In this document: positions 5,179 to 41,965 of the stretch, piece after piece
How the letters are laid out: each line of letters opens with the position of its first letter
Numbering within the stretch: position 1 is the stretch's first letter
Source: an uncultured cyanobacterium
GTDB lineage: Bacteria > Cyanobacteriota > Cyanobacteriia > Cyanobacteriales > CAWUOF01
NCBI GenBank assembly: GCA_963744145.1
Contig: CAVUSO010000001.1
Location: 384,001-448,000 of the forward strand
Direction of reading: 5' to 3'
DNA: 64,000 nt
Position numbers and translations under genes: made by a program
Notes under the pieces: model-generated
Seen by the model: the letters and a program-made list of their open reading frames with translations, nothing else
Databases searched by the model: none
What the model was told of the DNA's origin: nothing

Positions 5179-5331
5179 TTTTGAGATTTTTTAAGAAAAT
5201 AACCAGGTTATTAATATTTTGATGCTAAAAAAGGTTAAAAATAAAAATTATGCAGCGATCGGCTCACTGACTGGGTAGACGGTGACTACTTTGAAATAGT
5301 TCCCTTAATTATGCAAGATTTAAGCGATTCT

Positions 5332-8300
5332 TTACCAAGGACTACCAATCATCGTAAAACCAGACCAATAGTAAGGATGGGCTAAATTAGATTTTTCTAG
5401 ATTACCCAGTTGAGATGGTAAAGACACATCACCACCTTCTCCACGAATGACACCACTATCAATAGTTATTTTTTTCTGAATCATGGAGATTTGTGCTTGA
5501 CGTAGTGCTTCAGATTTAATAGGGACTATTTTTAATTGTCGATAAAACTCACTCATCAATGCTAAAGTCCCTTCATCACTGACATACCAGAGACTCGCTA
5601 ATACCGATTTTACCCCAGCTTGCACGCTTAAACCAGCAAAACCTAATTCCGTTCTATCATCCTCAAGTGCTGTCCGACAAGCACTTAATACTAACAACTG
5701 AGTCGTGGGATGATTTAATTGTAATTGCTGAATCTGGTCTAAAGTTAACCTAGTATCTGAAAATTGAATATAGCTATTTTTAGCAACTCCTGGTTGGAAT
5801 TCTCCATGAGTAGCTAAATGCACAATGTCAAAATTACCAGAAGCACGCTGATTTCTTAGCTTCTCTAAAGTGAAATCTTTATTCAAGAAAGATTTTCCAG
5901 ACCAATTTTTTAGAATTGATGATAACTCAGCTGGTACTGAAGGTAAAGGACTTTGTTCTTTAAATTCGCTTGCTCCCATTGCCAACACTTGAGAATTTCT
6001 AATATCTTTATAGCTGGTATCAGTTAAACTGAGGCTAGGGATTAATCCAATACTATATTTTTCAATTAAAAAGTTTTTACCATCATGTAAAGCGGCGATC
6101 GGTAAGGAACGTAAACCACTATCCATGCTAAATAACAAAAGTTTAATTCCTTGTGCTTGTAATTCTTTTTCGATCGGAGCAATTAGCCACTTATAAAGCT
6201 GCTGAGAAGATGCTAAATAGGTAGTTGTATTGCGACGAGTAGGAGATGTAACTTCATAACGGAATCTTTGGATCATCGGCATCAAAATCTGATCAGAAAT
6301 TGGAACACTTTTAACCATCGATTTACCGTCAGCTGTTACTAATACTAATTGTAATTGATCCGGCAAAACAATCGTATAAAATAAAGCGGGTTTAATTCCA
6401 GTTTGGGAGTAAATATTAGTCAAGGAATCATGGATGTTTTTATTGGTCATGACCTCACTAAAATTTTTACCTAACAAACCTCCTAATTCTTGACTGCGGA
6501 TTGATTCAATTTGCGGAATAGCTTTAACTGGATTGCTGATGTCAATAGTGCTATTAATACTAGTATTAGAAAATGTTGCACTAGAAACTGGATTTGATAC
6601 TATACCTAAAGATGATGTTGGAGTTGGAGTTGGAGTTGGAGTTGGGGTTGAAGATGGAGAGCTAATTGCGATCGCAGATGGTTGTGGTTGTAAACTTTGA
6701 GTTGAGGGTATTTGTAAACTTTGAGTTTGGGGTATTTGTAAACTTTGGGTTGAGGGTATTTGCAAAATTTGGGTTTGGGGTATTTGCAAACTTTGAACCT
6801 GAGATGATTGCCAAGTTTGATTTTCACTTTGGGAGTGAGATAATTGTGTTTGACTTGGAGATAATTGCTGACTTTGAACTGGTTGAGATTGACTTTGGAC
6901 TGGTTGAGATTGACTTTGAACTGGTTGAGATTGACTTTGGACTGGTTGAGATTGACTTTGAACTGGTTGGGATTGACTACTTTGTGATTTAGATAATTCT
7001 CCACTTTGAGATGATTGAGGTTGATCACTATGAGATGATTGAGATTGATCGCTTTGAGATGATTGAGGTTGATCACTATGAGATGATTGAGGTTGATCGC
7101 TTTGAGATGATTGAGGTTGATCACTATGAGATGATTGAGGTTGATCACTATGAGATGATTGAGATTGGCTATTAAGAAGTAGAGATTTACTTTGATTACT
7201 TTGAGGTTGAGATCGATTACCTTGAGATTGATTACCTTGGAATTGAGATTGATTACCTTGAGATTGATTAACTTGGGATTGGGATTGATTAACTTGAGGT
7301 TGATTACCTTGGAATTGATTAACTTGAGGTTGATTAACTTGGGATTGGGATTGATTACCTTGGAATTGATTAACTTGAGGTTGATTAACTTGGGATTGGG
7401 ATTGATTAACTTGAGGTTGATTAACTTGGGATTGGGATTGATTAACTTGAGGTTGATTAACTTGGAATTGGGATTGATTACCTTGAGGTTGATTACCTTG
7501 GGATTGGGATTGATTACCTTGAGGTTGATTACCTTGGAATTGGGATTGATTACCTTGAGGTTGATTACCTTGGAATTGGGATTGATTACCTTGAGGTTGA
7601 TTAACTTGGGATTGGGATTGATTACCTTGGAATTGATTAACTTGAGGTTGATTACCTTGGAATTGGGATTGATTAACTTGAGGTTGATTAACTTGGGATT
7701 GGGATTGATTACCTTGGAATTGATTAACTTGAGGTTGATTAACTTGGGATTGGGATTGATTACCTTGGAATTGATTAACTTGAGGTTGATTAACTTGGGA
7801 TTGGGATTGATTACCTTGAGGTTGATTAACTTGGGATGGGGATTGATTAACTTGAGGTTGATTACCTTGGGATTGGAATTGATTACCTTGGGATTGATTA
7901 CCTTGAGGTTGATTACCTTGGGATTGATTACCTTGGGATTGATTACCTTGAGGTTGATTACCTTGGAATTGGGATTGATTACCCTGAGATTGATTACCTT
8001 GGGATTGATTACCTTGGGATTGATTACCTTGGGATTGATTACCTTGGGATTGATTACCTTGGGATTGATTACCTTGGGATTGATTACCTTGGGATTGATT
8101 ACCCTGAGATTGATTACCTTGGGATTGATTACCCTGAGATTGATTACTTTGAGATTGATTACCCTGAGATTGATTACCTTGGGATTGATTACCCTGAGAT
8201 TGATTACCTTGGGATTGATTACCCTGAGATTGATTACCTTGGGATTGATTACCCTGAGATTGATTACCTTGGGATTGATTACCCTGAGATTGACTACCCT

Positions 8301-10290
8301 GAGATTGACTACCTTGGGATTGACTACCCTGAGATTGACTACCTTGAGATTGACTACCCTGAGATTGACTACCTTGAGATTGATTACCTTGGGATTGACT
8401 ACCCTGAGATTGACTACCTTGGGATTGACTACCTTGAGATTGATTACCTTGGGATTGACTACCCTGAGATTGACTACCTTGGGATTGATTACCTTGAGAT
8501 TGAGATTGACTATTCTGAGAAGATGGAGATGGAGATGGAGATGGAGTTGGAGTTGGAGATGGAGATGGGGTTGGAGATTGAGTTGTATCTGGAGCAATCC
8601 CTGGACCTGGATCTATAATTTTTGGTGGAGCTGGTGGTGGAAGGGAGTCTGGGTTGTTAATACCATTAGTAATAGTAATATGATTACCGGTAATAGCAAT
8701 TAACTGACTAGGATTATTATTAATTGCTAAAATTTCAATATTCCCAGGTGCAGTCATTACTATCGGACCACCCCCATCTGGAATATAAATCTTCCCAACG
8801 CTAATTGTATTACCAGAAAGGGGATTTTCCGTAAAATTTGTGCCGCCTAATTCATCTTTGGAACCAGTAGGAGGATTATCTAAAGTTGTACGACCTGCTC
8901 GTATAACTAGTCCAGGTTGAGTATTTAAAGCATACTTGATTACATCAGGATCGTTAGTAGAAATTGAGCTATCTGGACTGGTAATAGTAATATTCCCACC
9001 GATGATTTGTCCACGAGCTTCTATTTTCAGTGAAGACCCAACATAGTCACCAAATGCAATAAATCCATCAGAACTGATGATTGGATCATACTTACTCTCA
9101 AATTGTCCTGGTTGTCCGTTTAGATTCGTAATCGAAAAATTCCCCCCACTACTAAAATGAGCATCTCCGGAAATAATCCCATTACTTACTAAACTAAAAT
9201 CACCTCCACTTTGTAATGGTGTTTCGGGATGGTTTAATGCTAAAATGTCAATACTGTTGTTACCTTGAATGAGCAAATTTCCCCCAGCTTTAGCTAGAAA
9301 GGGTTCGGTCACGCTATCCCGGATCGTGACTGTATTGTTAGCTAACAGATTTAAGTCTCCGGTTGTGAAAATTTGGCTTTCGGGTAAGGTAAGATTATGT
9401 GCAGCGAAAAGATTAGCTGTCTGGGTACTAAGATTTTTAACAACAACATCTCCATTGATAATTTGTAATCCTGAACCGCTTAACACAACTTCACCCTGTG
9501 CGTTAACTGTTACTCCTGTAGCATGACTACTATTACCCCCTGTTAGTAATTGGGGTAAGCTCACACCCTCTGTCTTAGCACTAGATATTTGTACATCCAG
9601 GCTTAATATATGGTTAGGTTCACTAATTCTGAAAATATTTTCACCCGGAACACTGGTAATGTTAACTTCTCCCTCTGGAGCGCTGAGGTTTCCGGTACTG
9701 ATGATTGTCCCACCAATTAGGTTTAAATTTTGTCCAGATTTAACGGTTAAGTTCCCCGTATTAATAATGCTTCCAGGGTTCAAGCTATTGAAAATAAAAC
9801 CATTGGGATTTCCGTTGAGGATTTGATAATTATTTACTCCATTGGTATTAAACCAGTTGCTCCCAAATCCAATCCCATTCGCAGTGGTCGCAGTGAAACT
9901 AGCAGGAACGTTTAAACTCCCATTCGCTCCAAATACTATCCCTCCAGGGTTTATTAAAAATAAGTTAGAATTTCCTCCCGTAACTTGAATTAACCCGTTA
10001 ATGATGGAGGGATTGCTGCTACTTATTCTACCAAGAATATTTTTAATTGTTGGATTTGATTGAAAATTTGCTATTTGTCCTGCATCTAGATTAAATTTTG
10101 TAAAGCTGTGAAAAAGATTAGTTTTATCCCCGGAAAGTTGCCCTCCACGGATGTTTAATTGATTCCCAACGGAATTAACAACCGTATTTGTGCCATCATG
10201 GGCAGGGATGATTGATTGAGCTAGTACCCAAGGACAAAAAGCTAGACTAAATATAGGTAGTGGAGCCAGAAATAGCAGAATTTGGTTCAT
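5332..10290 (-). CDS. Haemagglutinin-domain/CHAT protein with a very long Q/S/N/G-rich repeat linker
   Basis: Same N-terminal motifs; HLATHGEF and VLSACRTA dyad motifs; SQGNQ repeats. Confidence 0.9.
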   Translation of the reverse strand: MNQILLFLAPLPIFSLAFCPWVLAQSIIPAHDGTNTVVNSVGNQLNIRGGQLSGDKTNLFHSFTKFNLDAGQIANFQSNPTIKNILGRISSSNPSIINGLIQVTGGNSNLFLINPGGIVFGANGSLNVPASFTATTANGIGFGSNWFNTNGVNNYQILNGNPNGFIFNSLNPGSIINTGNLTVKSGQNLNLIGGTIISTGNLSAPEGEVNITSVPGENIFRISEPNHILSLDVQISSAKTEGVSLPQLLTGGNSSHATGVTVNAQGEVVLSGSGLQIINGDVVVKNLSTQTANLFAAHNLTLPESQIFTTGDLNLLANNTVTIRDSVTEPFLAKAGGNLLIQGNNSIDILALNHPETPLQSGGDFSLVSNGIISGDAHFSSGGNFSITNLNGQPGQFESKYDPIISSDGFIAFGDYVGSSLKIEARGQIIGGNITITSPDSSISTNDPDVIKYALNTQPGLVIRAGRTTLDNPPTGSKDELGGTNFTENPLSGNTISVGKIYIPDGGGPIVMTAPGNIEILAINNNPSQLIAITGNHITITNGINNPDSLPPPAPPKIIDPGPGIAPDTTQSPTPSPSPTPTPSPSPSPSSQNSQSQSQGNQSQGSQSQGSQSQGNQSQGSQSQGSQSQGSQSQGNQSQGSQSQGSQSQGSQSQGSQSQGSQSQGSQSQGNQSQGNQSQGNQSQGNQSQGNQSQGNQSQGNQSQGNQSQGNQSQSNQSQGNQSQGNQSQGNQSQGNQSQGNQSQGNQSQGNQSQGNQSQGNQSQGNQSQGNQSQFQGNQPQGNQSQGNQSQGNQPQGNQSQGNQFQSQGNQPQVNQSPSQVNQPQGNQSQSQVNQPQVNQFQGNQSQSQVNQPQVNQFQGNQSQSQVNQPQVNQSQFQGNQPQVNQFQGNQSQSQVNQPQGNQSQFQGNQPQGNQSQFQGNQPQGNQSQSQGNQPQGNQSQFQVNQPQVNQSQSQVNQPQVNQSQSQVNQPQVNQFQGNQSQSQVNQPQVNQFQGNQPQVNQSQSQVNQSQGNQSQFQGNQSQGNRSQPQSNQSKSLLLNSQSQSSHSDQPQSSHSDQPQSSQSDQPQSSHSDQPQSSQSDQSQSSHSDQPQSSQSGELSKSQSSQSQPVQSQSQPVQSQSQPVQSQSQPVQSQSQPVQSQQLSPSQTQLSHSQSENQTWQSSQVQSLQIPQTQILQIPSTQSLQIPQTQSLQIPSTQSLQPQPSAIAISSPSSTPTPTPTPTPTSSLGIVSNPVSSATFSNTSINSTIDISNPVKAIPQIESIRSQELGGLLGKNFSEVMTNKNIHDSLTNIYSQTGIKPALFYTIVLPDQLQLVLVTADGKSMVKSVPISDQILMPMIQRFRYEVTSPTRRNTTTYLASSQQLYKWLIAPIEKELQAQGIKLLLFSMDSGLRSLPIAALHDGKNFLIEKYSIGLIPSLSLTDTSYKDIRNSQVLAMGASEFKEQSPLPSVPAELSSILKNWSGKSFLNKDFTLEKLRNQRASGNFDIVHLATHGEFQPGVAKNSYIQFSDTRLTLDQIQQLQLNHPTTQLLVLSACRTALEDDRTELGFAGLSVQAGVKSVLASLWYVSDEGTLALMSEFYRQLKIVPIKSEALRQAQISMIQKKITIDSGVIRGEGGDVSLPSQLGNLEKSNLAHPYYWSGFTMIGSPW
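6600..8580 (-). repeat. Coding tandem repeat array (15-bp SQGSQ/SQGNQ/PQVNQ units, then SSHSDQPQ, SQSQPVQ and LQIPQTQ blocks)
   Basis: ttgattaccttggga-type 15-mers repeated dozens of times. Confidence 0.95.
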
Positions 10291-10561
10291 ATTTTTTTTT
10301 AAAATAAAGTTTCTTTGCCTATGCTCATTATTAGTATACCGCTCTTTAATTTAATTTTAGTAAAATTTAGTACATCTTTATATTGATTAGCCAGAGATAT
10401 TTTTCTACTACTCATCAGAGTATTCTATCATAAAAAAATAAATTCTTTTTTAAAGATTATGTAAAGTTTTTAAACAGCTAACCGCATCGTCAGGCACTAA
10501 TTTTCGACTAAATTCCCGAGCGATCGCCAAAATCAGGGGTGATACCCCTCGGGTCAATTAG

Positions 10562-13500
10562 CTACCAAGGACTTCCAATCATGGTAAATCCTGACCAATA
10601 ATAGGGATGAGCTAAATTAGATTCTTTCATATTATGTAGTTGGGATGGTAAAGATAAATCACCAGTTTCTCCACGAATTTTCCCACTATTAATAGTTACT
10701 TTTTTCTGAATCATGGAGATTTGTGCTTGACGTAGGACATCAGCTTTAATAGGAACTATTTTCAATTGTCGGTAAAACTCACTCATTAAGGCTAAAGTAC
10801 CTTCATCACTAACATACCAGAGACTGGCTAAAGCAGATTTTACTCCAGCTTGGACACTTAATCCGGCAAAACCTAGCTCAACTTGATCATCTTCAACTGC
10901 TGTGCGACAAGCACTTAGCACTAATAACTCTGTCGGAGGGTTATTTAATTGTAATTGCCGAATCTGGTCGAGAGTTAACTTGGTGTCTGAAAATTGAATA
11001 TAGCTATTTTTAGCGATTCCTGGTTTAAACTCTCCATGAGTAGCTAAATGCACAATTTCAAAAGCACCAGAGGAATGTTGATGTTGCAATTTTTCTAAAG
11101 TAAAGTCTTGATTTAAAAAAGATTTACCAGGCCAATTTTGGAGAATTGATGACAATTCAGTTGGCACCGCAGGTAGAGCATTTTGTTCTTTAAATATGCT
11201 CGCTCCCATGGCCAGCACTTGAGAATTTCTAATATCTTTATAGCTAGTATCAGTTAAACTGAAGCTAGGAATCAAGCCAATACTATATTTTTCCACTAAA
11301 AAATGTTTGCCATCATGCAAAGCGGCGATCGGCAAAGAACGCAAACCACTATCCATACTAAATAGTAAAGTCGTAATACCCTGTGATTGCAATTCTGGTT
11401 CTAAAGGGGCAATCAGCCACTGATAAAGTTGTTGAGCATATTGCAAGTAGCTAGTTAAATTGCGCTGTGAAGGAGCAGTTATTTCATTACGAAATTGTTG
11501 TACTATTGGCAGTAAAGTATCTCTCTTCACGGGAATGCTTTTCACCACAAATTTGCCTTCTGCTGTTACTAATACAAGTTGTAATTGATTGGGCAAAATA
11601 TTTGTATAAATTAAAGCTGGTTTAATCCCAACTTGAGAGTGAATTTTTCTCAAAGATTCACGGATATTTTCAGTAGTGAGCGTTTGACTAAAGTCTTTAC
11701 CTAAGAAACCACCTAATTCTTGACCACGCATTAATTCGATTTGCGGGATCGCACTATTGAGATTATTTGCATCAATCGGATGGTTGACAGGTGCTTGAAC
11801 ATTGATTGAATTAGATACTGAGGTTGATGTGGGCGCAGGTGCTGGTGTGGGCGCAGGTGCTGGTGTGGATGCAGGTGCTGGTGTGGATGCAGGTGCTGTT
11901 AATAGAACTGGAGTCGAGGGCAAAGATAAAGTTGAAACCTGTGTTTGCACTGATGTTGTTGGTACTAGGGTCTGAGGTGGTGCTGGAACACTAGGTGGTA
12001 AAGTCCCATTTTGTGGATTAGGAGTACCCGATGGTGGTGGATTAGAAGTACCCGATGGTGGTGGATTAGAAGTACCTGGTAGTGGTGGATTAGGAGTACC
12101 CGATGGTGGTGGATTAGAAGTACCTGGTAGTGGTGAATTAGGAGTACCCGATGGTGGTGGATTAGAAGTACCTGGTAGTGGTGGATTAGGAGTACCCGAT
12201 GGTGGTGGATTAGAAGTACCTGGTAGTGGTGAATTAGGAGTACCCGATGGTGGTGAATTAGGAGTACCCGATGGTGGTGAATTAGGAGTACCCGATGGTG
12301 GTGAATTAGGAGTACCCGATGGTGGTGGAGTTGGATTTATCCCACCATTGTTATTAGCAATATTAGAATTAGTCGTACCGTTAATAATATTAACAGTAGC
12401 ATTGGTACTCGTAACATTAGGCTGACTACTATTATTTATAATTGATAATGCTTGAATATTACCAGGTGCTGAAATTATCACAGGACCGCCAGGATTAGGA
12501 ATATTAACATTACCGATATTTACAGTATTGCCAGATCCTGGACTATTGCTAAAATTAACTCCTCCCACGCCATTTTGAGGTACATTGGGAGGATTATCTA
12601 AAGTTACAAGTCCAGCTCGCAAAACTAATCCAGGTTGATTATTTAAACTGTAAGCTATGACATCAGGATCATTACTATTAATTAATTGATCTGGACCAGT
12701 AATAGTAATATTTCCACCTGTGATTTTGCCAGTAGCTTCGATTTTTAGCGAAGCTCCATTATAATCACCAAAAGTAACATCTCCATTAGCACTAATAATT
12801 GGATCAAAAATACTAATAGATTTACCTGGTTCTCCCATTAGGTTAGTAATCGAAAAATTTCTCCCACTGCTAAAGTGAGCATCGACCGAGATATTACCAT
12901 TACTAACTAAACTAAAATTACCGTTACTTTGTAATGGAGTTTGAGGATGATTTAATGCTAGGATGTCAATTCCATTATTACCTTGAATGAGAAAATCTCC
13001 CCCTGATTTGGCTAGAAAAGATTGGGTAATAGTATCGCGAATTGTTACTGTATTTTGCGCTAAAAGATTCAAGTCTCCAGTTGTAATCAGTTGACTTTCT
13101 AATAGGCTTAGATTATGATTTGCGGAAATAGTAGCTGTTTGAGAAGTAAGATTTTTAACAACAATGTCTCCATAATTAATCGGAATATCTGAACCCGTTA
13201 ATACTATTTCACCCTGATTATTAATCTTTACATTTATAACATCATTATAATTACCACCGGTTAGTAATTTTGGTAAATTTACAGGAGTTAGAATTTGATT
13301 AGTCAGTGGAATATCCAGACTTAATATATGGTAAGGTTGACTAATATTAATTCTATTCGTACCAGGAATACTAGCGATCGTAATTTGTCCACCAGGAGCA
13401 TTTAAGTTGCCAGTGCTGATAATTGTCCCACCTAATAAGTTTAAATCTTGCCCAGGTTTAACAGTTAAGTTACCCCCATTGATGATCGTCTCAGGTTGTA

Positions 13501-14005
13501 AGCTTGTGAAAATAAAAGCACTAGGATTTCCTGATAATAATTGATAATTATTAGTTCCATTAGTATTAAACCAATTGTTCCCAAAAGCTATTCCATTTGC
13601 CGTAGTAGCAGTAAAAGCAGCAGGTAAGTTTAAACTAGCATTTTTTCCAAATAATATACCCGCTGGATTGATTAAAAATAAGTTAGCATTACCACCAGTT
13701 ACTTGAATTAAACCATTAATAATTGATGGACTTCCCGTAACTCGGCTTAAGATATTTTGGATATTTGGATTTACTTGAAAATTGGCAATTTGACCAGGAT
13801 TAAGGTTAAATTTATTAAAACTATGAAAAAGATTATTTTTATCCCCAGAAAGCTGTCCCCCAGAGATATTAAATTGTTGACCAACGGGACTGACGATCGT
13901 GTTGCTCCCATCATTTGCTGGTATTATAGGTTGTGCTAATACCGGAGCAAATAAGGTAACACTATATACATATATTCCAATTTGGATCAGAATAAATCGT
14001 TTCAT
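10562..14005 (-). CDS. Haemagglutinin-domain/CHAT protein with a Pro-rich linker
   Basis: Same domain motifs; PPSGTPNS repeats; CHAT C-terminus HPYYWSGFTMIGSPW. Confidence 0.9.
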   Translation of the reverse strand: MKRFILIQIGIYVYSVTLFAPVLAQPIIPANDGSNTIVSPVGQQFNISGGQLSGDKNNLFHSFNKFNLNPGQIANFQVNPNIQNILSRVTGSPSIINGLIQVTGGNANLFLINPAGILFGKNASLNLPAAFTATTANGIAFGNNWFNTNGTNNYQLLSGNPSAFIFTSLQPETIINGGNLTVKPGQDLNLLGGTIISTGNLNAPGGQITIASIPGTNRINISQPYHILSLDIPLTNQILTPVNLPKLLTGGNYNDVINVKINNQGEIVLTGSDIPINYGDIVVKNLTSQTATISANHNLSLLESQLITTGDLNLLAQNTVTIRDTITQSFLAKSGGDFLIQGNNGIDILALNHPQTPLQSNGNFSLVSNGNISVDAHFSSGRNFSITNLMGEPGKSISIFDPIISANGDVTFGDYNGASLKIEATGKITGGNITITGPDQLINSNDPDVIAYSLNNQPGLVLRAGLVTLDNPPNVPQNGVGGVNFSNSPGSGNTVNIGNVNIPNPGGPVIISAPGNIQALSIINNSSQPNVTSTNATVNIINGTTNSNIANNNGGINPTPPPSGTPNSPPSGTPNSPPSGTPNSPPSGTPNSPLPGTSNPPPSGTPNPPLPGTSNPPPSGTPNSPLPGTSNPPPSGTPNPPLPGTSNPPPSGTSNPPPSGTPNPQNGTLPPSVPAPPQTLVPTTSVQTQVSTLSLPSTPVLLTAPASTPAPASTPAPAPTPAPAPTSTSVSNSINVQAPVNHPIDANNLNSAIPQIELMRGQELGGFLGKDFSQTLTTENIRESLRKIHSQVGIKPALIYTNILPNQLQLVLVTAEGKFVVKSIPVKRDTLLPIVQQFRNEITAPSQRNLTSYLQYAQQLYQWLIAPLEPELQSQGITTLLFSMDSGLRSLPIAALHDGKHFLVEKYSIGLIPSFSLTDTSYKDIRNSQVLAMGASIFKEQNALPAVPTELSSILQNWPGKSFLNQDFTLEKLQHQHSSGAFEIVHLATHGEFKPGIAKNSYIQFSDTKLTLDQIRQLQLNNPPTELLVLSACRTAVEDDQVELGFAGLSVQAGVKSALASLWYVSDEGTLALMSEFYRQLKIVPIKADVLRQAQISMIQKKVTINSGKIRGETGDLSLPSQLHNMKESNLAHPYYWSGFTMIGSPW
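12010..12330 (-). repeat. Coding 24-bp tandem repeat (PPSGTPNS/PLPGTSNP)
   Basis: ggagtacccgatggtggtgaatta-type units. Confidence 0.9.
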
Positions 14006-18266: not shown

Positions 18267-18592
18267 AAAAATGCTCGGCAAGTGGGAAACTCAGTTCTTT
18301 AGAACTGGGAGGGAAACGGCTCGTGCGGTTTTAACCGCCGTGGATATTGGAAAGGGAGGTAATTTTACCTCCCTTTCCCTCCCTTGCGGGGTGATGTTCG
18401 CTTCGACCTGTTATCTGAGCTTGTTAAGCTTGTAGCACTGTTTCAGTGACCTTAAAACTGTTTAACTACAAGCGACAGAGCGGGGAACTAGCGTCGCATT
18501 CCGAGGTGTCGTGACTCAGATAACGTCTCCCCGTGGGGTCTGGTCAGTACAGCTCTTTCAGAGCTACAGTCCTAAAGGACTGGGTTACTGAC
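18267..18592 (-). mobile_element. Non-autonomous IS200/IS605-type element carrying an IscB-type omega-RNA (HEARO) scaffold but no ORF
   Basis: Minus strand starts GTCAGTAACCCAGTCCTTTAGGACTG...TACTGACCAGACC and ends with a subterminal hairpin CCCAGTTCTAAAGAACTGAG followed by ATGAA. Confidence 0.8.
18379..18592 (-). ncRNA. omega-RNA / HEARO-like scaffold
   Basis: Ordered motifs GTCAGTA...TACTGACCAGACC, ACGTTATCTGAG paired with CTCAGATAAC, GGAATGC-CTAGTTCC, CTCTGTCG, TTAAACAG...CAGTG, GTCGAAGCGAACATCACCCCGCAAGGGAG. Confidence 0.78.
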
Positions 18593-31214: not shown

Positions 31215-31799
31215 ATGGCTACAGCAACAAAAGAGAAAACCCAATCGAGAAAAGCATTTACAGTAGAGGAGTTTTATCGACTGGGTGAAATTGGAATACT
31301 CAAAGCAGATGAGCGAGTAGAGTTAATCGAAGGGGATATTATCGAAATGGCTGCGATCGGGACTCGTCATGCAGGTTGTGTTAATTCTTTAATAGAGGTT
31401 TTTGCCGAACTAATTTTCAAAAAATCTGCTTTGTTGCTAGTCCAAAATCCGATTCAGTTAAGTAATTATTCACAGCCTCAACCAGATATCGCAGTAGTTA
31501 GACGAGATCCTCTTTTCCGTGGAACCAAACACCCCCAACCCCAAGAGATATTTCTAGTTATTGAAGTTTCCGATACTACCCTAAAAGACGATCAAAAAAA
31601 AGCATTAATTTATGCTAAATCTGGTATCTCCGAATATTGGATCGTGAATTTAGATGCTCAATTAATCGAAGTTTATCGTCATCCTACTGTTGATGGTTAT
31701 CGCGATCGCCTATTATTCAAATCGGCGGAAACTATTTCACCTTTAGCTTTTCCTGATTTAGTTATTGCGGTTGATGATATTTTGCCTAAAATCCTTTAA
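31215..31799 (+). CDS. Uma2 family protein (array copy A)
   Basis: [33 protein letters not shown]. Confidence 0.92.
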   Translation: MATATKEKTQSRKAFTVEEFYRLGEIGILKADERVELIEGDIIEMAAIGTRHAGCVNSLIEVFAELIFKKSALLLVQNPIQLSNYSQPQPDIAVVRRDPLFRGTKHPQPQEIFLVIEVSDTTLKDDQKKALIYAKSGISEYWIVNLDAQLIEVYRHPTVDGYRDRLLFKSAETISPLAFPDLVIAVDDILPKIL

Positions 31800-32147
31800 T
31801 CGCGATCGCCATCAGTTAATTTTAATCCCTAGACTATTGAGCCTGGAAATCTTCTCGTTATACAGTCTATTCCAGGTTTATGAAGTTCATCAAGGTGATC
31901 TGTGGGGCAGGGCGGGTTCATTAAGGTTATTTGTGTGTGGCAAATTCAACGGTGAACCCGCCCCTACAGAGATTCACCAAAAAATCGATCAGGATTAGAG
32001 GATGACAAGATTAACAGGATTTGTAGGGGCAGGTGAATGAATTTATGATCACAATCAACCGGGATTTGTAGGGGCAGGTTCACCAATCAATTATGCTCCA
32101 AACAGATAACTATCATAAACCTGCCCAACCAACACAGATCAATTACA
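31797..32147. repeat. Duplicated Uma2 trailer containing gtaggggc REP-like repeats, copy 1
   Basis: Near-identical to 35270-35716. Confidence 0.9.
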
Positions 32148-32467
32148 AGCGACTTTAACTGATCGCCATTCATGCAAAATCTTACTGTACTTCATCAACC
32201 TAGAATCCGCTGTATTACTGACGGAATTGCTCTCTTTAGGATTAGTGTCTCTAAATCCAGATTTTTGACTGATTTTATGTATATTTTGATACAAATTCCC
32301 GAAATCTTTCCCGAAAAAGCTAATGTCCCATCAAATTTTGGGAGTTTCGACCCAGGGATTCCCTCTCCTTTTCAGGTCGCTGGCAGGTAATGAAATGCTG
32401 CAAACCCCATTCCCACGTCATCCAATTTTTCAGAAAAATATTGTTGATCTTTTAGAAAAGCTATATG

Positions 32468-33778
32468 TTAGAGTCTAGAGAAGAGAAAAGATATTCCTTC
32501 CACCCCAATATCCCTTTTAAATCCCCCACCATCACCACCACCACCACCAACACCCCCAACTCCTACTGGGAGGTGTCCCACCGGAGCTGAGATATTAAAA
32601 GTGAGGTCAGAGTAGCTCAACCAGTTTCCTCCTTTTCTCCAGACAACTTCATCTGCTAGTTTAACATAAGTATCGAAATCATAACTATCTAGCTTACCAC
32701 CCAATTTGAGCCAGATCTTCTTCTGGACTGAAAACCCAAATTTGTCATTAGAATACTTTAACCACAACTGGTCAATGATCCGCAGTTCATTTTTCGGAAA
32801 ATTACGACAGTTATCTTCTGTTAAGTATCCCTGTTTTTCCCTATTCATAATTTTTAACATGACTCGACCAGTTTCTTGATCTGCTTCTTGCCATTTTTTA
32901 TCTGATAATAATTGATCTAGTTTCCTCAAATCACCTCTAGCAGTCACTAATTGCCCAGGTCCAGGAATATTTGGTGCAGATATCAATAAATCTAACCATT
33001 TTTGCATATTCTGAGGACGATTTACCGCATCAATCTCCATTCCTTTTAAAATTGCTGTTCTGAGGCGATCGCTAACACCTTCAGGAGAGAACAAATCGTG
33101 ATTTTCCAGTTTACGTTTTAATGAAGAAGTCGGTAATTGACCAGTCACTATAAAATAAAGAGAAGCAGCTAGAGTATAAACATCAACCCTCACATCACGA
33201 CTACCTTGAATATACTGTTCCCAAGGAGCAAAAGCTGGATTAGCTGGATGTTTAGAACTCATTACCGTGGGAATAATTTCCCCAGCAATCCCAAAGTCAA
33301 TTAAAACCGCCCGATTTTTATCGACAATAATATTCCCAGGGTGAGCATCCCGATGAACAATACCCTCTTGATGTACTATTACTAAAGCCTCGCCAATTTG
33401 ACGAATATAACTCACCGCAACCGATTCTGATAAAGCCCCGTTTTGTTGAACCAATTCCCATAAACTTTTCCCAAGAACCAAATCCATCACCAAACAAGGT
33501 GTATTTTCTTCATAAAACAAATCACTGACTCGGACAATATTTGGATGGGATTTCTGGGAAATTTTTGCGAGAATTTGCCCCTCTTGCTGAAAACGTTTGA
33601 CAAATTTGGGATAATCCGGATCAGCCTGTAAACCAGCATTGGGTGTTTTCAGAACTACAGAATGGTTAAGATGGAGGTGTTTAGCTTTGTAGGTAATCCC
33701 AAAACCCCCTTGTCCAAGAATCTGCTCAATCTGAAAAGGTCTATTTGTGAGTTTTTGTCCCGGTTGCCAAAACACCAT
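32468..33778 (-). CDS. Ser/Thr protein kinase with C-terminal GUN4 domain
   Basis: LGQGGFGITY, VVLK, HRDAHPGN, IDFG; GUN4 motifs WQEADQET, IDQLWLKYSNDKFGFSVQKKIW, GHLP. Confidence 0.92.
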   Translation of the reverse strand: MVFWQPGQKLTNRPFQIEQILGQGGFGITYKAKHLHLNHSVVLKTPNAGLQADPDYPKFVKRFQQEGQILAKISQKSHPNIVRVSDLFYEENTPCLVMDLVLGKSLWELVQQNGALSESVAVSYIRQIGEALVIVHQEGIVHRDAHPGNIIVDKNRAVLIDFGIAGEIIPTVMSSKHPANPAFAPWEQYIQGSRDVRVDVYTLAASLYFIVTGQLPTSSLKRKLENHDLFSPEGVSDRLRTAILKGMEIDAVNRPQNMQKWLDLLISAPNIPGPGQLVTARGDLRKLDQLLSDKKWQEADQETGRVMLKIMNREKQGYLTEDNCRNFPKNELRIIDQLWLKYSNDKFGFSVQKKIWLKLGGKLDSYDFDTYVKLADEVVWRKGGNWLSYSDLTFNISAPVGHLPVGVGGVGGGGGDGGGFKRDIGVEGISFLFSRL

Positions 33779-33990
33779 ACATATTCTCGAATTAACTCTA
33801 ATCCATGCTACTATGCTCGCTCACCATTTGAGTATACATTACCTTTAACGACAGCAACAGTTGTAGCGGAAAACTCTTAGCCGGAACTTTCCCCCCCCAT
33901 CGCAAAAACTCGAAAGTATTACACCCCGCTGACGACAATGAGACAGGATAAGATAAATAAAAAGCGATCGCGATTAATGAGGGGAGAGAA

Positions 33991-34575
33991 ATGGTTACAG
34001 CCATAAAAGAGCAAAGTTTATTAAGAAAAGTGTTTACCGTAGAGGAATTTTATAAACTGAGTGAAGTGGGGATCATCAAAGCAGATGAGCGAGTAGAATT
34101 AATCGAAGGGGATATTATCGAAATGGCAGCAATTGGGACTCGTCATGCAGGTTGTGTAAATTTACTAGTTGATATTTTTACCGAACCACCAATTAAAAAA
34201 TCTGCTTTACTGCTAGTCCAAAATCCAATCTTATTAGATAATTATTCACAGCCTCAACCCGATATTGCCGTAGTCAAGCGAGACTCTATTTTCTGTGGAA
34301 CCAAGCACCCTCAACCTCAAGATATCTTCTTAGTTATTGAAGTTGCTGATACTACTCTAAAAGATGATCGTCGCAAAGCTTTGATTTATGGTTTAGCTGG
34401 TATTTACGAATATTGGATTGTTAATTTAGATGCTCAATTAATCGAAGTTTATCGTCACCCTACTGTTGATGGTTATCGCGATCGCCTATCTTTCAAATCG
34501 GCAGAAACTATTTCACCTTTAGCTTTTCCTGATTTAGTTATTGCGGTTGATGATATTTTGCCTAAAATCCTTTAA
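33991..34575 (+). CDS. Uma2 family protein (array copy B)
   Basis: Paralogue of 31215. Confidence 0.92.
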   Translation: MVTAIKEQSLLRKVFTVEEFYKLSEVGIIKADERVELIEGDIIEMAAIGTRHAGCVNLLVDIFTEPPIKKSALLLVQNPILLDNYSQPQPDIAVVKRDSIFCGTKHPQPQDIFLVIEVADTTLKDDRRKALIYGLAGIYEYWIVNLDAQLIEVYRHPTVDGYRDRLSFKSAETISPLAFPDLVIAVDDILPKIL

Positions 34576-34687
34576 TCGCGATGGCAATTAGAACTATACT
34601 GTATTGTTTTATAGTTTACACCCCGCCGAAGACAATGGGAAATGGTAAGATAAATAAAAAGCGATCGCGATTAATGAGGGGAGAGAA

Positions 34688-35272
34688 ATGGTTACAGCCA
34701 TAAAAGAGCAAAGTTTATTAAGAAAAGCGTTTACCGTAGAGGAATTTTATAAACTGAGTGAAGTGGGGATCATCAAAGCAGATGAGCGAGTAGAATTAAT
34801 TGAAGGGGATATTATCGAAATGGCAGCAATTGGGACTCGTCATGCAGGTTGTGTAAATTTTTTTAACGATATTTTTACGGAACCAAAAATTAAAAAAACT
34901 GCTTTGGTGTTAGTCCAAAACCCAATCTTATTAAATAATTATTCCCAGCCTCAACCCGATATTGCCATAGTTAGAAGAAAACCAGATTTTTATAAAGATG
35001 GACACCCCCAACCCCAAGAGATATTTTTAGTGATTGAAGTTTCAGACACTACATTAAAAGACGATCGAAAAAAAGTATTAATTTATGCTAAATCTGGTAT
35101 CTCCGAATATTGGATCGTGAATTTAGATGCTCAATTAATCGAAGTTTATCGTCACCCTACTGTTGATGGTTATCGCGATCGCCTATCTTTCAAATCGGCG
35201 GAAACTATTTCACCTTTAGCCTTTCCTGATTTAGTTATTGCGGTTGATGATATTTTGCCGAAAATTGTTTAA
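34688..35272 (+). CDS. Uma2 family protein (array copy C)
   Basis: Paralogue; 72-bp leader shared with copy B. Confidence 0.92.
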   Translation: MVTAIKEQSLLRKAFTVEEFYKLSEVGIIKADERVELIEGDIIEMAAIGTRHAGCVNFFNDIFTEPKIKKTALVLVQNPILLNNYSQPQPDIAIVRRKPDFYKDGHPQPQEIFLVIEVSDTTLKDDRKKVLIYAKSGISEYWIVNLDAQLIEVYRHPTVDGYRDRLSFKSAETISPLAFPDLVIAVDDILPKIV

Positions 35273-35716
35273 TCGCGATCGCCATCAGTTAATTTTAATC
35301 CCTAGACTATTGAGCCTGGAAATCTTCTCGTTATACAGCCTATTCCAGGTTTATGAAGTTCATCAAGGTGATCTGTGGGGCAGGGCGGGTTCATTAATAC
35401 CTCGACTGCGCTCGGCACAAGGGTTATTTGTGTGTGGCAAATTCAACGGTGAACCCGCCCCTACAGAGATTCACCAAAAAATCGATCAGGATTAGAGGAT
35501 GACAAGATTAACAGGATTTGTAGGGTTTGTGGAGATATTTGAGGATAAAAAATGACTACGGATTAGAGGATGACAAGATTAACAGGATTTGTAGGGGCAG
35601 GTGAATGAATTTATGATCACAATCAACCGGGATTTGTAGGGGCAGGTTCACCAATCAATTCTGCTCCAAACAGATAACTATCATAAACCTGCCCAACCAA
35701 CACAGATCACTCACAA
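35270..35716. repeat. Duplicated Uma2 trailer, copy 2 (with a 24-nt insertion and an internal duplication)
   Basis: Aligns with 31797-32147. Confidence 0.9.
35398..35421. mobile_element. 24-nt small dispersed repeat (SDR-like) insertion
   Basis: tacctcgactgcgctcggcacaag is present here and absent from the paralogous site near 31924. Confidence 0.75.
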
Positions 35717-35933
35717 TCTCTGACAGGCAAGATGCCTGTCCCACCATTCATGCCAAATCTTACTGTACTTCATCAACAGGTCATCCGCTGTATCCCAAGT
35801 AATCCTGGGATATTTTTTTGTGTAATCAAATAATTAACAATAAGTATAGAATAATACATTTAAAAACGCAGATGGCTGCGCTTTTGAGGGATGGGACATA
35901 GTAAAATATTGAGTGAGTAAAGAGGTCAAGGAT

Positions 35934-36515
35934 ATGGTTACAGCAATAAAAGAAAAAACCAGATCGAGAAAAGCATTTACAGTAGAAGAATTTTATCGCA
36001 TGGGTGAAGTGGGGATACTCAAAGCAGACGATCGAGTAGAATTAATTGAAGGGGACATAATTGAAATGGCAGCAATTGGGACTCGTCATGCAGGTTGTGT
36101 GAATTGGCTAACTAAGTTTTTTTCTAAAAATCTAGATGAACGTGCTTTAGTGACAGTTCAAAATCCAATCCTATTAAGCGAATACTCGCAGCCTCAACCC
36201 GATCTCACTATAGCCAGGATAGATCCTAATTGTTATAGAACCAAGCATCCCCAACCCCAAGATATATTCCTAATTATTGAAGTTTCGGAGACTACTATCA
36301 AAGACGATCGCGAAAAAGCTTTAATTTATGGTTTAGCTGGTATTTCTGAATATTGGATCGTTAATTTAGATACTCAATTAATCGAAGTTTATCGTCATCC
36401 TAATGTTGATGGTTATCGCGATCGCCTATTATTGATGAGATTAGGTGAATCTATTTCTCCTTTGGCCTTTCCTGACCTGATTATCTCTGTTGCTGATATT
36501 TTGCCCCCATGCTGA
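35934..36515 (+). CDS. Uma2 family protein (array copy D)
   Basis: Paralogue; ATG 35934 matches the paralogue starts. Confidence 0.92.
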
Positions 36516-38857: not shown

Positions 38858-38893
38858 GTAGTAAGCGCTTTAGCTCGCTAAAGCGCTTACTAC
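38858..38893. repeat. GTAG-type REP palindrome
   Basis: gtagtaagcgctttagc-tc-gctaaagcgcttactac perfect inverted repeat. Confidence 0.8.
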
Positions 38894-38964: not shown

Positions 38965-39333
38965 TTAAGATTGATCAAACTCGAGCAAAGCCGAGAGAAG
39001 TTCTTGTTCTTCCGTCATCGCTTTCCGAATACGTGCAATCATCGAAGAAGCGGTATTTTTATTAACTTCAATTTCTTTCGCAAGTTGACGCACACTAATA
39101 TTTTGAGTTGAAGTCATCACCAGATTAATTGCTCGTACCCATTTGGGAATTTCTACATGAGTTTTGTGAAATAGCGTTCCCACAGTAACGCTATAGGAAG
39201 TAAAACATCCATTACAATGATAACGAGATTCATTTTTTATCGGTGTAGCATTAGTTGAATCACAGTAAGGACATTGTGGTTTGTTACCCCAGCGAATTTG
39301 TTCCAAATATGAACTGTTTTTTTGATTTTGCAT
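38965..39333 (-). CDS. IS1595-type Zn-ribbon + HTH protein lacking the DDE domain
   Basis: RWGNKPQCPYC...YHCNGC...SVTVGTLFHKTH...ISVRQLAKEIEVNKNTA...RIR; ends at 122 aa. Confidence 0.8.
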   Translation of the reverse strand: MQNQKNSSYLEQIRWGNKPQCPYCDSTNATPIKNESRYHCNGCFTSYSVTVGTLFHKTHVEIPKWVRAINLVMTSTQNISVRQLAKEIEVNKNTASSMIARIRKAMTEEQELLSALLEFDQS

Positions 39334-39621
39334 TGAAAAAACTCGACTCTGTTTACTAAATCTCTAACCAGATGTCAAAGAGCCAACAAAATCCCTGATC
39401 AGGGAATCAAAAGCTAAAATGTCAGGTTTTTAGCTCCATCCCTATCTATTGAAAAAAACCCCCAGGAAATTTTTTTTTCAATAATTAGAGATTAATTAGA
39501 GATTTGCGTAGCAGATATATGGTTTGGCTGTGATCAGCTGCAAGTCCCCAAATCGAAATCAAGACAGGTATATCCTTTTTACTAGTCGGTGACCCAATAA
39601 ACTAATTCAGATCTACGAACC

Positions 39622-39736
39622 AGGACTTACACAACACCGCTATAAATTGCGTTTTTTGTTGGGACAATTTCTAGATTGACCCTACAGATAGTGTTTATAC
39701 CGAAGTTCTAGAAAGGAATTAAAGGCTTAAGTTCGG
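39622..39736. mobile_element. Degenerate MITE-like remnant
   Basis: Starts aggacttacaca, ends cttaagttcg, with an internal ccctac REP-like arm. Confidence 0.35.
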
Positions 39737-39769
39737 GATTTTCATTTATGGGTCGTTGATCACGAAATA

Positions 39770-39810
39770 TATAACATACATAACACATATTATGTTGTTT
39801 GTATGTTATA
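39770..39810. promoter_or_regulatory. Candidate operator: 11-bp perfect inverted repeat
   Basis: TATAACATACA-N19-TGTATGTTATA in the divergent intergenic region. Confidence 0.6.
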
Positions 39811-40034
39811 AAGGTAAAATATCAACTTGAGGGATGTCAATATAGAGCAGGAGGTTGATTTGATAAAGAAATATTAAGGATGCTGGCCAATTTTTAGTCC
39901 TAGGGACATTTTGTGCTATGGATACGCTGGGTGATAGTAGTACCCAGAAAAACATCAGGGTGGATCAAGAAAACCGACATTGACCTTAGCCCCAGCTATT
40001 TTTAAACCTTACCCAGCTGAGAAAGAGGGATAAA

Positions 40035-41162
40035 GTGATATCAGAAGAAAAAAAGCAAAGGTTATCCGAGCTACTTAAGTACATTCGTGGTAACGATGGA
40101 GTGAAAAAATTTGCGGCTCGTTTAGAGATTAAACTTCCCACTTATAGTGCTTGGGAAACAGCGAGAGCTTTTCCTAGTGATGAAATTTGGGAGATAATTT
40201 TACCCAAATTGTGCGAATTATCTAGCTTTACTCCAGAGATCATCGATCGCTATCTACGCGGAGATTACGAACTAACTGATTTAATTGAAGGATCAGCTCA
40301 AACTGGTTTACTACCTAGAGCTAGACCACTGATGACTATTGCCAAGTTTAGAGCTTGGTTACAAACCCTTTCTTTAACTCAATTAATCCAGATTTTAAAA
40401 GATGCAGTGGATCGAGCTGGATTTTTAGTATCGCAACAGGAGGATAGTGAAAAAATCCTCAATTTACCAACAGTAGATGAATCGAAAAGATCAACTGATC
40501 ATCCGAAAAAAAATCTATTTGGCAAAAATAGTCAAATAAATTTAATATCTACTCGCAGTAAAGAACCAGCCAAGTTGCAAGTAGACCTACTTGATCAAGA
40601 AGCGGTAGTTAGCATTATTTTCCAGTTGAGCAATAACTTATCTCTGGAAAAGATAGCGCAGGTAGATAACCGACTCCGTAACCTAATGTTTTCAAAGTTA
40701 CAGGATCTTGGTTTACTGGAAATGAGCAAATATCAACATCATCCTTTTTACATTTTAATGGAAACCTATAGGATGAATAACAATCTCAGTTACGAACAAT
40801 TTGCCGAACGTCTGATGAGAGAAGGTCTAGAAGCTGGTTTAGATCCTCAACGAATAGCAAAGATTGTGCGAGGTGATTATTTGCCCAATGATCTAGAACT
40901 AATTTGGATTGGCGTTTTTATTCGGAAATCGGATGGAAGTCTTTACAATCACGATGAATTAGTTGCTTTGCGAGATATGACATTTTCGGCTGATTCAGAA
41001 AAATTACCACTAGAGACATCTGTCGAAAATCATGCTACTCATATTTTATCAGACCATGAGGATACAGACAATGACCAGTTTCGGAATTTTGACCACAATA
41101 GCGTAGATGATGAAACTATTCTCAATGAACACAACCGTAATTTTAAACGAAATGGAAAATAG
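40035..41162 (+). CDS. Protein with two XRE-like HTH domains
   Basis: IRGNDGVKKFAARLEIKLPTYSAWETARAFPS and YRMNNNLSYEQFAERL...IAKIVRGDYLPN; acidic tail. Confidence 0.65.
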   Translation: MISEEKKQRLSELLKYIRGNDGVKKFAARLEIKLPTYSAWETARAFPSDEIWEIILPKLCELSSFTPEIIDRYLRGDYELTDLIEGSAQTGLLPRARPLMTIAKFRAWLQTLSLTQLIQILKDAVDRAGFLVSQQEDSEKILNLPTVDESKRSTDHPKKNLFGKNSQINLISTRSKEPAKLQVDLLDQEAVVSIIFQLSNNLSLEKIAQVDNRLRNLMFSKLQDLGLLEMSKYQHHPFYILMETYRMNNNLSYEQFAERLMREGLEAGLDPQRIAKIVRGDYLPNDLELIWIGVFIRKSDGSLYNHDELVALRDMTFSADSEKLPLETSVENHATHILSDHEDTDNDQFRNFDHNSVDDETILNEHNRNFKRNGK

Positions 41163-41179
41163 TCAAGTAGAGGAATAAA

Positions 41180-41965
41180 ATGTGGAATTATCAGGGTGAT
41201 AATGGTGAAGAATTGCAATTGGAAAAAGAGTTTCAGAGGAGTTCAAATGCTTTAACGACTGCTGTATTTTATCAATTTATTCCGGCTGAAACTAAAAAGA
41301 TTTTAGCTGATGTGAAAATTCAATTAATTACTGATGCGAAAATTCTGCGTTTTGATTGTCCATCGCGAAGAATAGCAGCTCGTTTGTTTAAAATGTCTAA
41401 TCTGATTTCTTTTGCGGTTTATGGTTTAAAGGAAAATTTGCAACTTAACTTTATTCCCAAATTGGAAATTCTCTGTACAGGACAGCAGTTTATCCCTAGA
41501 TTAAACCCGGAGAAATTAGTAATGGATAGTCTGACAGCAGAAAATCAGGAAAAAGTACCTGGAACGAATCTGGTGATCGCTGAGTTAGATTTGGATTTGA
41601 ATGAACTGTATCAAAATCCCAATCCAATTTATATTACCCAAATGTCAGACCAAAAAGTTTTATTTGCTAATCGAGCTGCATTGATATCGAATAATCGAGC
41701 TGCGGGAGAAATGGTTGGGAAAGAAATTGTGGCTCTTTGGGATGATGATATTCTGCAAGAATTGATGAATCGGTTAGAACGCGATCGCGAACTTTGGCAA
41801 TATAATTATCCCGGTTATCGCTGGGCAAAAGGAGAAAATTCTCGGATTTGGCAACGCGATCGCTATATGTTTTCAGCTAATTACAAATTGGTTGATTTTT
41901 TAGGTTCAATGTGCCGCTATTGTATTATTACATCAGCGGAAAAAATGCCACTTCAACCTGTCTAA
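41180..41965 (+). CDS. Protein with a C-terminal PAS-like domain
   Basis: NPIYITQMSDQKVLFANRAA...EMVGKEIVALW resembles the PAS core. Confidence 0.6.
   Translation: MWNYQGDNGEELQLEKEFQRSSNALTTAVFYQFIPAETKKILADVKIQLITDAKILRFDCPSRRIAARLFKMSNLISFAVYGLKENLQLNFIPKLEILCTGQQFIPRLNPEKLVMDSLTAENQEKVPGTNLVIAELDLDLNELYQNPNPIYITQMSDQKVLFANRAALISNNRAAGEMVGKEIVALWDDDILQELMNRLERDRELWQYNYPGYRWAKGENSRIWQRDRYMFSANYKLVDFLGSMCRYCIITSAEKMPLQPV

Follow-up and report, generated by a model that had tools for sequence, protein, structure and literature searches.

We analysed a 64,000-nucleotide stretch of an uncultured cyanobacterial genome (hereafter the window), which contains a module of three genes, named A, B and C here, and a palindrome, O1, in the spacer between A and B. 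Gene A, encoding a protein related to the DNA-binding part of IS1595 transposases, is divergent from B, a gene for a protein with tandem helix-turn-helix (HTH) domains, and B is followed by C with its PAS domain. A second site, M2, was recognized at related loci. A preliminary description, made from the letters of the window alone, had proposed a three-gene module at this position; recomputing the coordinates reproduced its open reading frames (ORFs), their sizes and strands and the 17-bp gap between B and C exactly, and O1 and M2 were absent from it. Judged from sequence, we consider the locus a real and apparently undescribed conserved regulatory module with two predicted sites.

Table 1 Features of the A-B-C module in the window
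Feature	Position	Strand	Description
Gene A	38965-39333	minus	122 aa, IS1595-type Zn-ribbon and HTH, without DDE domain
O1	39774-39806		33-bp palindrome with 1-bp centre; about +1 to +33 of the A transcript; putative B operator
A promoter, sigma-70 type	39811-39840	minus	TTGACA 39840-39835, 18-bp spacer, TACCTT 39816-39811
Gene B	40035-41162	plus	375 aa, GTG start, tandem XRE-type HTH
Gene C	41180-41965	plus	261 aa, alpha/beta N-terminal domain and PAS domain

Conservation of the module and its three proteins

Conservation was assessed in 300 other genomes of the order, with a close C defined by an E value below 1e-50. A close C occurs in seven of them, and all seven also have A and B in the same divergent layout, so the co-occurrence that the preliminary description had named as a check holds. 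The three genes were found together at 11 loci including the window (duplicates counted once), one of which is split by a contig end; at a twelfth, L104, the contig stops after the start of B. The relatives named in the sources are Kamptonema, Microcoleus, Oxynema, Laspinema and Phormidium. C sits 17–57 bp behind B at the six loci with a readable gap, two other gaps being mis-estimated, and each of the three genes is single-copy in the 7.7-Mb genome studied here (for A by tblastn, blastn and hidden Markov model search). At a disrupted locus, L099, B is intact, A is missing and C is interrupted, and M2 is still present 3 kb away. This locus has, by reading, an IS1-like ORF upstream and a reverse-transcriptase-like ORF within C.

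The ratio of nonsynonymous to synonymous substitution rates (dN/dS), another check suggested earlier, could be taken from four unsaturated pairs and amounts to 0.07–0.12 for A, 0.26–0.40 for B and 0.12–0.25 for C; by these values, A is under purifying selection. The synonymous rate (dS) between the window and the other loci is near saturation, and one relative, G198, has the same right-hand neighbours as the window module. These two observations are better evidence of long residence than the HIP1 sites in C that had been cited for it: both sites are present, but at a rate of 1.01 per kb their number is within chance (P ~0.19), and none occurs in A, B or the A-B spacer. In relatives, the module does not stand alone. 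Behind A, 10 of the 11 loci have an endolysin-like operon whose gene for a protein with C39-peptidase, peptidoglycan-binding and GH19 domains is split at one locus and truncated by the end of the contig at another; a second C39 gene usually accompanies it, and a TIR-WD40 gene often does. The window is the only one of the 11 loci without this operon behind A, and the module in this genome may be a reduced version.

The features ascribed to the A protein were largely recovered. Its Zn-ribbon matches Pfam PF12760 (Zn_ribbon_IS1595) above cut-off (E 6.3e-11) with the Cys pairs CPYC and CNGC intact, residues 64–106 give weak HTH matches, and NF033547 is matched at positions 1–67, far below the cut-off of that model. 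The catalytic domain DDE_Tnp_IS1595 (PF12762) has no match in the genome (96.3% complete), and no DDE part lies behind A in the window or at 40 other loci, where a positive control was detected. No terminal inverted repeat pair flanks A among the 25 longest inverted repeats shown, the genome lacks multiple near-identical copies of A, and the one facing pair of M2 sites (G219) has no target duplication in the printed flanks. A aligns over its full length with the N-terminal third of transposases from many phyla; near-identity to an active element, raised earlier as a possible objection, was not found, the best full-length transposase being 42% identical. A family search gave 442 matches in a length window of 67–214 aa, and the best 120 of the 442 measure 121–141 aa. 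Such short A genes occur in 22 of the 300 other genomes and, in two other families, in 41 of 251 and 20 of 90 genomes, all as open frames below 200 aa, and nearly all of the genomes concerned have one or two copies. Short Zn-ribbon clusters exist in further phyla too, the close short family being cyanobacterial. In a quick, midpoint-rooted tree (124 columns, long branches), the module A genes form one group (Shimodaira–Hasegawa-like approximate likelihood ratio test, SH-aLRT, 88) apart from full-length forms (98). Databases annotate the family as 'transposase', but A appears to be a stand-alone, IS1595-derived regulator.

The three genes form a unit at the 11 loci; A itself is not tied to B and C, since 15 of the 22 short-A genomes lack a close B-C pair. 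Relatives of B-C without A were in turn found at mobile-looking loci, and the module is thus a joining of two older units, the lone A family and B-C. The start codon of lone A genes lies inside a hairpin at 20 of 40 loci, versus none of 110 control ORFs, and module A genes lack this hairpin. A hairpin on lone A and O1 on module A would represent two different off-switches for one gene.

For B, the two XRE-like HTHs described before are supported by HTH_3 (PF01381) at residues 244–287 (E 7.6e-6, above cut-off), by a sub-threshold HTH_31 at 24–55 and by matches of both regions of the predicted model to XRE repressors (residues 1–82: Z 8.4 to 2ofy, root-mean-square deviation (rmsd) 2.7, 77 aligned; residues 235–322: Z 6.7, rmsd 5.1, 71 aligned). 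Fold matches include C.BclI, ImmR and P22 c2, and the linker and tail are disordered. An internal duplication between the two HTHs was considered and is undetectable (hhalign probability 1%). B has 24 other homologues at 50–67%, and shorter relatives stand directly upstream of C-family genes. The AlphaFold model of C (predicted local distance difference test, pLDDT, 90.7) combines an unassigned N-terminal alpha/beta domain (about residues 8–121) with a PAS fold at about 140–255 (Z 13.0, rmsd 2.1, 103 aligned; Foldseek E 2.7e-6). As had been stated, C contains no kinase or output domain; it also lacks GxNCRFLQ, the cofactor motif of LOV domains. Conserved residues are N164, L186, R214, W215, W224 and C245. 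The C family comprises 113 representatives, nearly all shorter than 315 aa, and its distant members follow small regulators, either shorter B-like ones or others, and often precede a GNAT gene.

Several of these distant HTH-PAS operons, in part with GNAT (L044, L046, L048-L052, L054), diverge from Cro-like genes, C5-methylase genes of 1000–1200 aa or other large ORFs of no recognized function, and L044 and L048 lie near genes read as CRISPR-Cas. Such operons look like control regions of cyanobacterial integrative elements. No relative of C was confirmed in viral contigs, and a viral fold search with C returned generic PAS proteins only. Against PHROGs, A had one match of unknown function and another, weak one to HNH, B weakly matched a repressor, and C had no match. 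In the PADLOC library of 2023, no model was matched by A, B, C, the C39 proteins or six cargo proteins of lone A loci; the TIR-WD40 neighbour alone matches, through shared domains. Rfam has no family in the module or its spacers.

The predicted sites O1 and M2

An alignment of the A-B spacers revealed one conserved block, which consists of O1 and the leftward promoter, with TTGACA-N17/18-TAnnnT located 5–10 nt from O1 at all eight aligned loci. O1 is present at 12 of 12 loci with A and B, is absent at the disrupted L099 and was not found at nine stand-alone or distant A loci (L086-L094). With a leave-one-out matrix built without the window, the O1 of the window ranks first on the 7.6-Mb contig (36.6 versus 13.6 bits). 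A consensus promoter scan missed the A promoter, whose −10 box in the window matches three of six positions, and the A transcript is predicted to start at O1, at 39804-39805 on the minus strand. Each half of O1 holds two CA(T/A)A subsites 11 bp apart, an arrangement that would suit a dimer of a two-HTH protein, and the 1-nt centre together with unpaired inner spacers suits a DNA operator better than an RNA hairpin. We regard binding of O1 by B as probable. O1 goes with B-C and not with lone A, and it sits at the predicted start of the A transcript, in keeping with the proposed repression of A by B. A wider B regulon was rejected because O1 occurs once per genome; three non-module genomes have matches to the outer arms without the inner subsites. 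A reading of O1 as a dif site was also dropped, as the likeness in the window is not kept at other loci.

M2 was recognized as a nearly invariant 22-mer in the spacer between A and the C39 gene. The predicted 23-bp site has the consensus TGTCCTAGTTAGCGGTAGTGAC, and relative to a TAnnnT box its centre lies near −41; transcription is predicted to begin about 52 nt downstream of the first base of M2. Under a strict search, 17 of 301 genomes contain the site; 11 of these have a short A, which leaves 6 among the 278 genomes without one. A degenerate pattern added seven A genomes and none of 16 A-less genomes, and both patterns together cover 18 of the 23 short-A genomes. For an out-of-sample test, the M2 matrix was fixed beforehand and applied to 40 newly fetched A loci, all without B and C, and to 40 reversed controls; scores above 16 bits were obtained at 28 of the former and none of the latter. 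All 28 strong lone sites lie on the strand opposite A, 21 in convergent and 7 in divergent orientation.

The context of M2 resembles that of a promoter. Among the 34 sites scoring above 10 bits near A, a TAnnnT box, which is outside the matrix, follows after 17 bp in 31 cases and after 17 or 18 bp in all 34 (background 2%), and the M2 centre lies 29 bp upstream of the start of this −10 box. The −35 slot matches TTGACA at only two to four of six positions in 31 of the 34. Class II activators such as CRP, FNR and NtcA bind near −41, overlapping the −35 element, at a fixed distance from the −10 box, and M2 has this geometry in its position near −41 and its fixed −10 offset. With its weak −35 slot and fixed −10, the arrangement resembles an activator-dependent promoter. 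Furthermore, at all five loci with (N/T)RATA in place of NKNTA in the A helix, the site is altered in both arms. Given this pattern of co-occurrence and covariation, A very probably binds M2. Three direct repeats at G000:C1:5514172-5514688 score 16.9 bits on the M2 matrix, within the control range and without a −10 box, and are probably coding repeats.

In module genomes, M2 precedes the C39/peptidoglycan-binding/GH19 operon (endolysin phrog_181, E 2.5e-50), and in five genomes, three of them module genomes, it precedes SLATT/DUF4231 genes behind a SLOG gene. SLATT proteins have been described as predicted pore-forming effectors (bioRxiv 10.64898/2026.04.29.721553, in excerpt). G198 also has M2 before a lone GH19 gene and before an endolysin-like gene, both unlinked to the module (the G185 orthologue of the latter has a weaker M2), as well as before a DUF2252 gene and a gene read as LamG-like. 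At lone loci, the target is a hypervariable soluble protein of 58–209 aa. In the genome studied here, the sole M2 above the control range lies at G000:C1:5679146 (L166:9147) and scores 37.9 bits, against at most 20.3 in the reversed genome. It has TAAGAT at a distance of 17 bp, stands 151 bp ahead of a gene for a 234-aa pentapeptide-repeat protein and is divergent from a DUF218 gene. This pentapeptide-repeat gene is likely the remaining target of A in this genome.

Two further arrangements were observed around M2. Many lone loci (L086, L087, L089-L092, L148, L201-L240) hold a cassette of A, a protein with one or two transmembrane (TM) segments and a weak phycobiliprotein-like C-terminal domain, and a convergent small helical gene read from M2. 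Six of these cargo proteins had neither a PADLOC match nor an informative Pfam name, and the cassette could be an undescribed defence or toxin-antitoxin system. In G262, an A with altered C-terminus lies by a SLOG-M2-SLATT arrangement (L170:8588-9064, L171), an M2-C39-TIR operon is found on another contig, and no close B-C was found; this is possibly a decaying module.

A proposed two-tier switch and competing explanations

We propose that B, C and A form a two-tier transcriptional switch with O1 and M2, a model that we hold, on balance, to be somewhat favoured. In the first tier, a B dimer would sit on O1 with one HTH per subsite and shut the strong leftward promoter, so that A is normally off. 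C, co-transcribed with B, would sense a small ligand or the state of the cell through its PAS domain and alter the grip of B on O1. This role of C is read from its constant position behind B-like genes and from its fold, which form its whole basis; the predicted B-C complex scored 0.28 against a mark of 0.32, and action of C through B is an even call. In the second tier, A, which lacks catalysis, would bind M2 near −41 and switch promoters on. In relatives with the module, the genes under these promoters would be those for endolysin-like hydrolases of the wall and for SLATT effectors of the membrane, a set that points to lysis of the wall or suicide of the cell on induction; lysis or defence as the output is plausible, but we would stop just short of an even chance for it. 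The sensor/repressor switch with a domesticated transposase domain envisaged in the preliminary description is supported and made specific by O1 and M2, with the difference that A looks like an output activator rather than a part of the repressor.

Several observations weigh against this model. The M2 evidence is narrowed by the origin of the degenerate pattern, which was drawn partly from loci that it then found; it misses five short-A genomes of the order and four outside the sample, and five of the 40 new A loci score 10 bits or less. Kin are not independent, and the covariation of helix and site represents one clade and one event. G190 has an NRNTA helix with a perfect M2, and four genomes (G042, G166, G182, G263) have an intergenic M2 with no A found, although two of these look, by reading, like decayed loci. 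Regarding the output, the DUF2252, ECF-like sigma, pentapeptide and hypervariable small helical targets have no evident lytic function. In the genome studied here, M2 is absent from the SLOG-SLATT pair and from the C39/GH19 paralogues, and the lysis output is therefore inapplicable to this genome as it stands. In addition, the structure model of B is of low confidence (mean pLDDT 59).

Among the alternatives, the one that deserves most weight, albeit rather unlikely, keeps the same wiring with opposite sign: A would repress the M2 promoters, and their targets, expressed by default, would be silenced once A is produced. Loss of a small, antitoxin-like protein could, for instance, release the 2-TM cargo protein from restraint in this way. 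In favour of this reading, M2 overlaps the −35 slot with its right arm, module sites keep a near-consensus GTGAC(A/T/G) there, most lone loci have the toxin-antitoxin-like layout of A, 2-TM cargo and convergent small gene, and the transposase-derived InsA is a repressor (PMC12428005, in excerpt). However, in most lone sites the −35 is weak and the −10 fixed, it is less plausible that endolysin-like and SLATT genes would be on by default, and the seven divergent sites among the 28 strong lone ones drive genes mostly at loci without cargo behind A. The weak −35 at M2, together with hairpin or O1 control of A as for a protein that needs to be kept off, favours activation, and we judge it fairly likely that A activates rather than represses.

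A different origin was also weighed, in which a non-autonomous, passenger-carrying derivative of IS1595 left both A and M2 behind: A would be the truncated remainder of its transposase, M2 one of its terminal repeats, now frozen, and B-C would have come to lie next to them by chance from some other mobile element. A is indeed patchy, in varied contexts and sometimes plasmid-borne, a P63C-like passenger of the same kind accompanies one full-length IS1595 as well as two short distant forms, and M2 is unusually invariant for a transcription-factor site. This origin is nevertheless quite improbable, as no partner end was seen (none of 40 loci has an M2 oriented towards A in the 1.2 kb upstream), M2 does not resemble the termini of full-length elements (best score 10.3 bits in a scan of 22 loci), the −10 box stays fixed across a variable spacer, M2 precedes unlinked orthologous genes in two genomes, and A is under purifying selection at low copy number. 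Less probable again is that M2 is read by some other factor of patchy occurrence, either a sigma factor or a regulator unlinked to it, and that A only co-travels. The four genomes with M2 and no detectable A and the one M2 before an ECF (extracytoplasmic function)-like sigma gene would fit this, but A is the only gene found common to module and lone loci, single M2 sites lie within ~3 kb of A, and the A helix covaries with the site. Least probable in our view is that A was never domesticated but has long been a regulator in its own right with kinship to the IS1595 N-terminus, with borrowing in either direction, which would leave the wiring unchanged. The limits of the quick tree behind the split between short and full-length forms and the short Zn-ribbon clusters of other phyla speak for it, whereas the whole-length alignment of A to the N-terminal third of transposases from many phyla and the cyanobacterial nature of the close short family speak against it.

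Joining the two-tier switch with the distribution of A leads to a broader scenario, which we offer tentatively and consider doubtful as a whole: an IS1595 DNA-binding domain may have become a widespread cyanobacterial activator family and, in some filamentous lineages, may have been wired under the repressor-PAS switch of an integrative element for inducible suicide or lysis (endolysin-like proteins, SLATT pores, TIR-WD40), serving defence or filament breakage.

As described before, the module of the window lies between housekeeping genes, namely ccmS and, read from translation, those for an NAD(P)HX repair enzyme and mnmA. The gap between ccmS and A contains a perfect, terminator-like palindrome with 17-bp arms (38858-38893), of which about nine similar copies exist elsewhere in the genome. 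Further features of the window are a HEARO RNA at 18391-18592 (RF02033, 134.5 bits) just upstream of a same-strand 329-aa ORF, three tandem very large ORFs at 79-14005 (1699, 1652 and 1147 aa) with similar N-termini, filamentous-haemagglutinin-like by reading, and four near-paralogous ORFs of 194–200 aa at 31215-36515, Uma2-like by reading, around a Ser/Thr kinase gene.

Comparison with known systems

The B half of the module recalls the XRE immunity switches known from phages, from integrative elements and from restriction controllers, in which an XRE repressor diverges from a strong promoter with a palindrome at its start; distant B-C relatives diverge from Cro-like and large C5-methylase genes. 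Unlike these switches, B carries two HTHs in one chain, has a separate PAS partner and possesses one predicted operator per genome, and no prophage genes were seen around the module. In the MmyB/MltR regulators, an XRE HTH and a PAS-like fold are fused in one chain. B-C likewise pairs an XRE HTH with the PAS-like ligand-binding fold described for that group (PMC3406030, in excerpt), but distributes the two over separate genes, and no MmyB-type Pfam family was matched.

For A, a close parallel in role is InsA of IS1, the frameshift product of an intact element that represses the promoter of that element (PMC12428005, in excerpt). Both are N-terminal DNA-binding parts of transposases that act, or in the case of A would act, as lone transcription regulators; A differs in having no catalytic partner in the genome and a predicted site before unlinked host genes rather than at an element end. 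IS1595 is related to IS1 according to a reference title. The Zn-ribbon/HTH of IS1595 elements (PF12760 with PF12762; ISApl4, PMC12561309, in excerpt) aligns over all of A with up to 42% identity, but A lacks their DDE domain, terminal repeats, 7–9-bp target duplication and multicopy spread. Searches of the literature, read as listings and outside subscription papers and supplements, gave no description of the A family, its site or the module, and no bacterial transposase-derived host regulator.

Several hundred cyanobacterial 'transposase' genes may be mis-annotated regulators, and the two exact sites, the natural specificity variant and the named targets make the predictions directly testable. 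If the lysis reading is true, the module would offer a genetic handle on regulated cell death in filamentous cyanobacteria, in which necridia have been described (PMC9415839, in excerpt). The reuse of transposase material as a host transcription factor has a likeness in plant FHY3/FAR1 (PMC13306707, in excerpt), which are eukaryotic and Mutator-derived, whereas A is bacterial, consists of a minimal DNA-binding domain and would have a repressor and a sensor of its own upstream. Should the activator-family reading hold, A and its relatives would form the bacterial equivalent of FHY3/FAR1, with a binding code that can be read.

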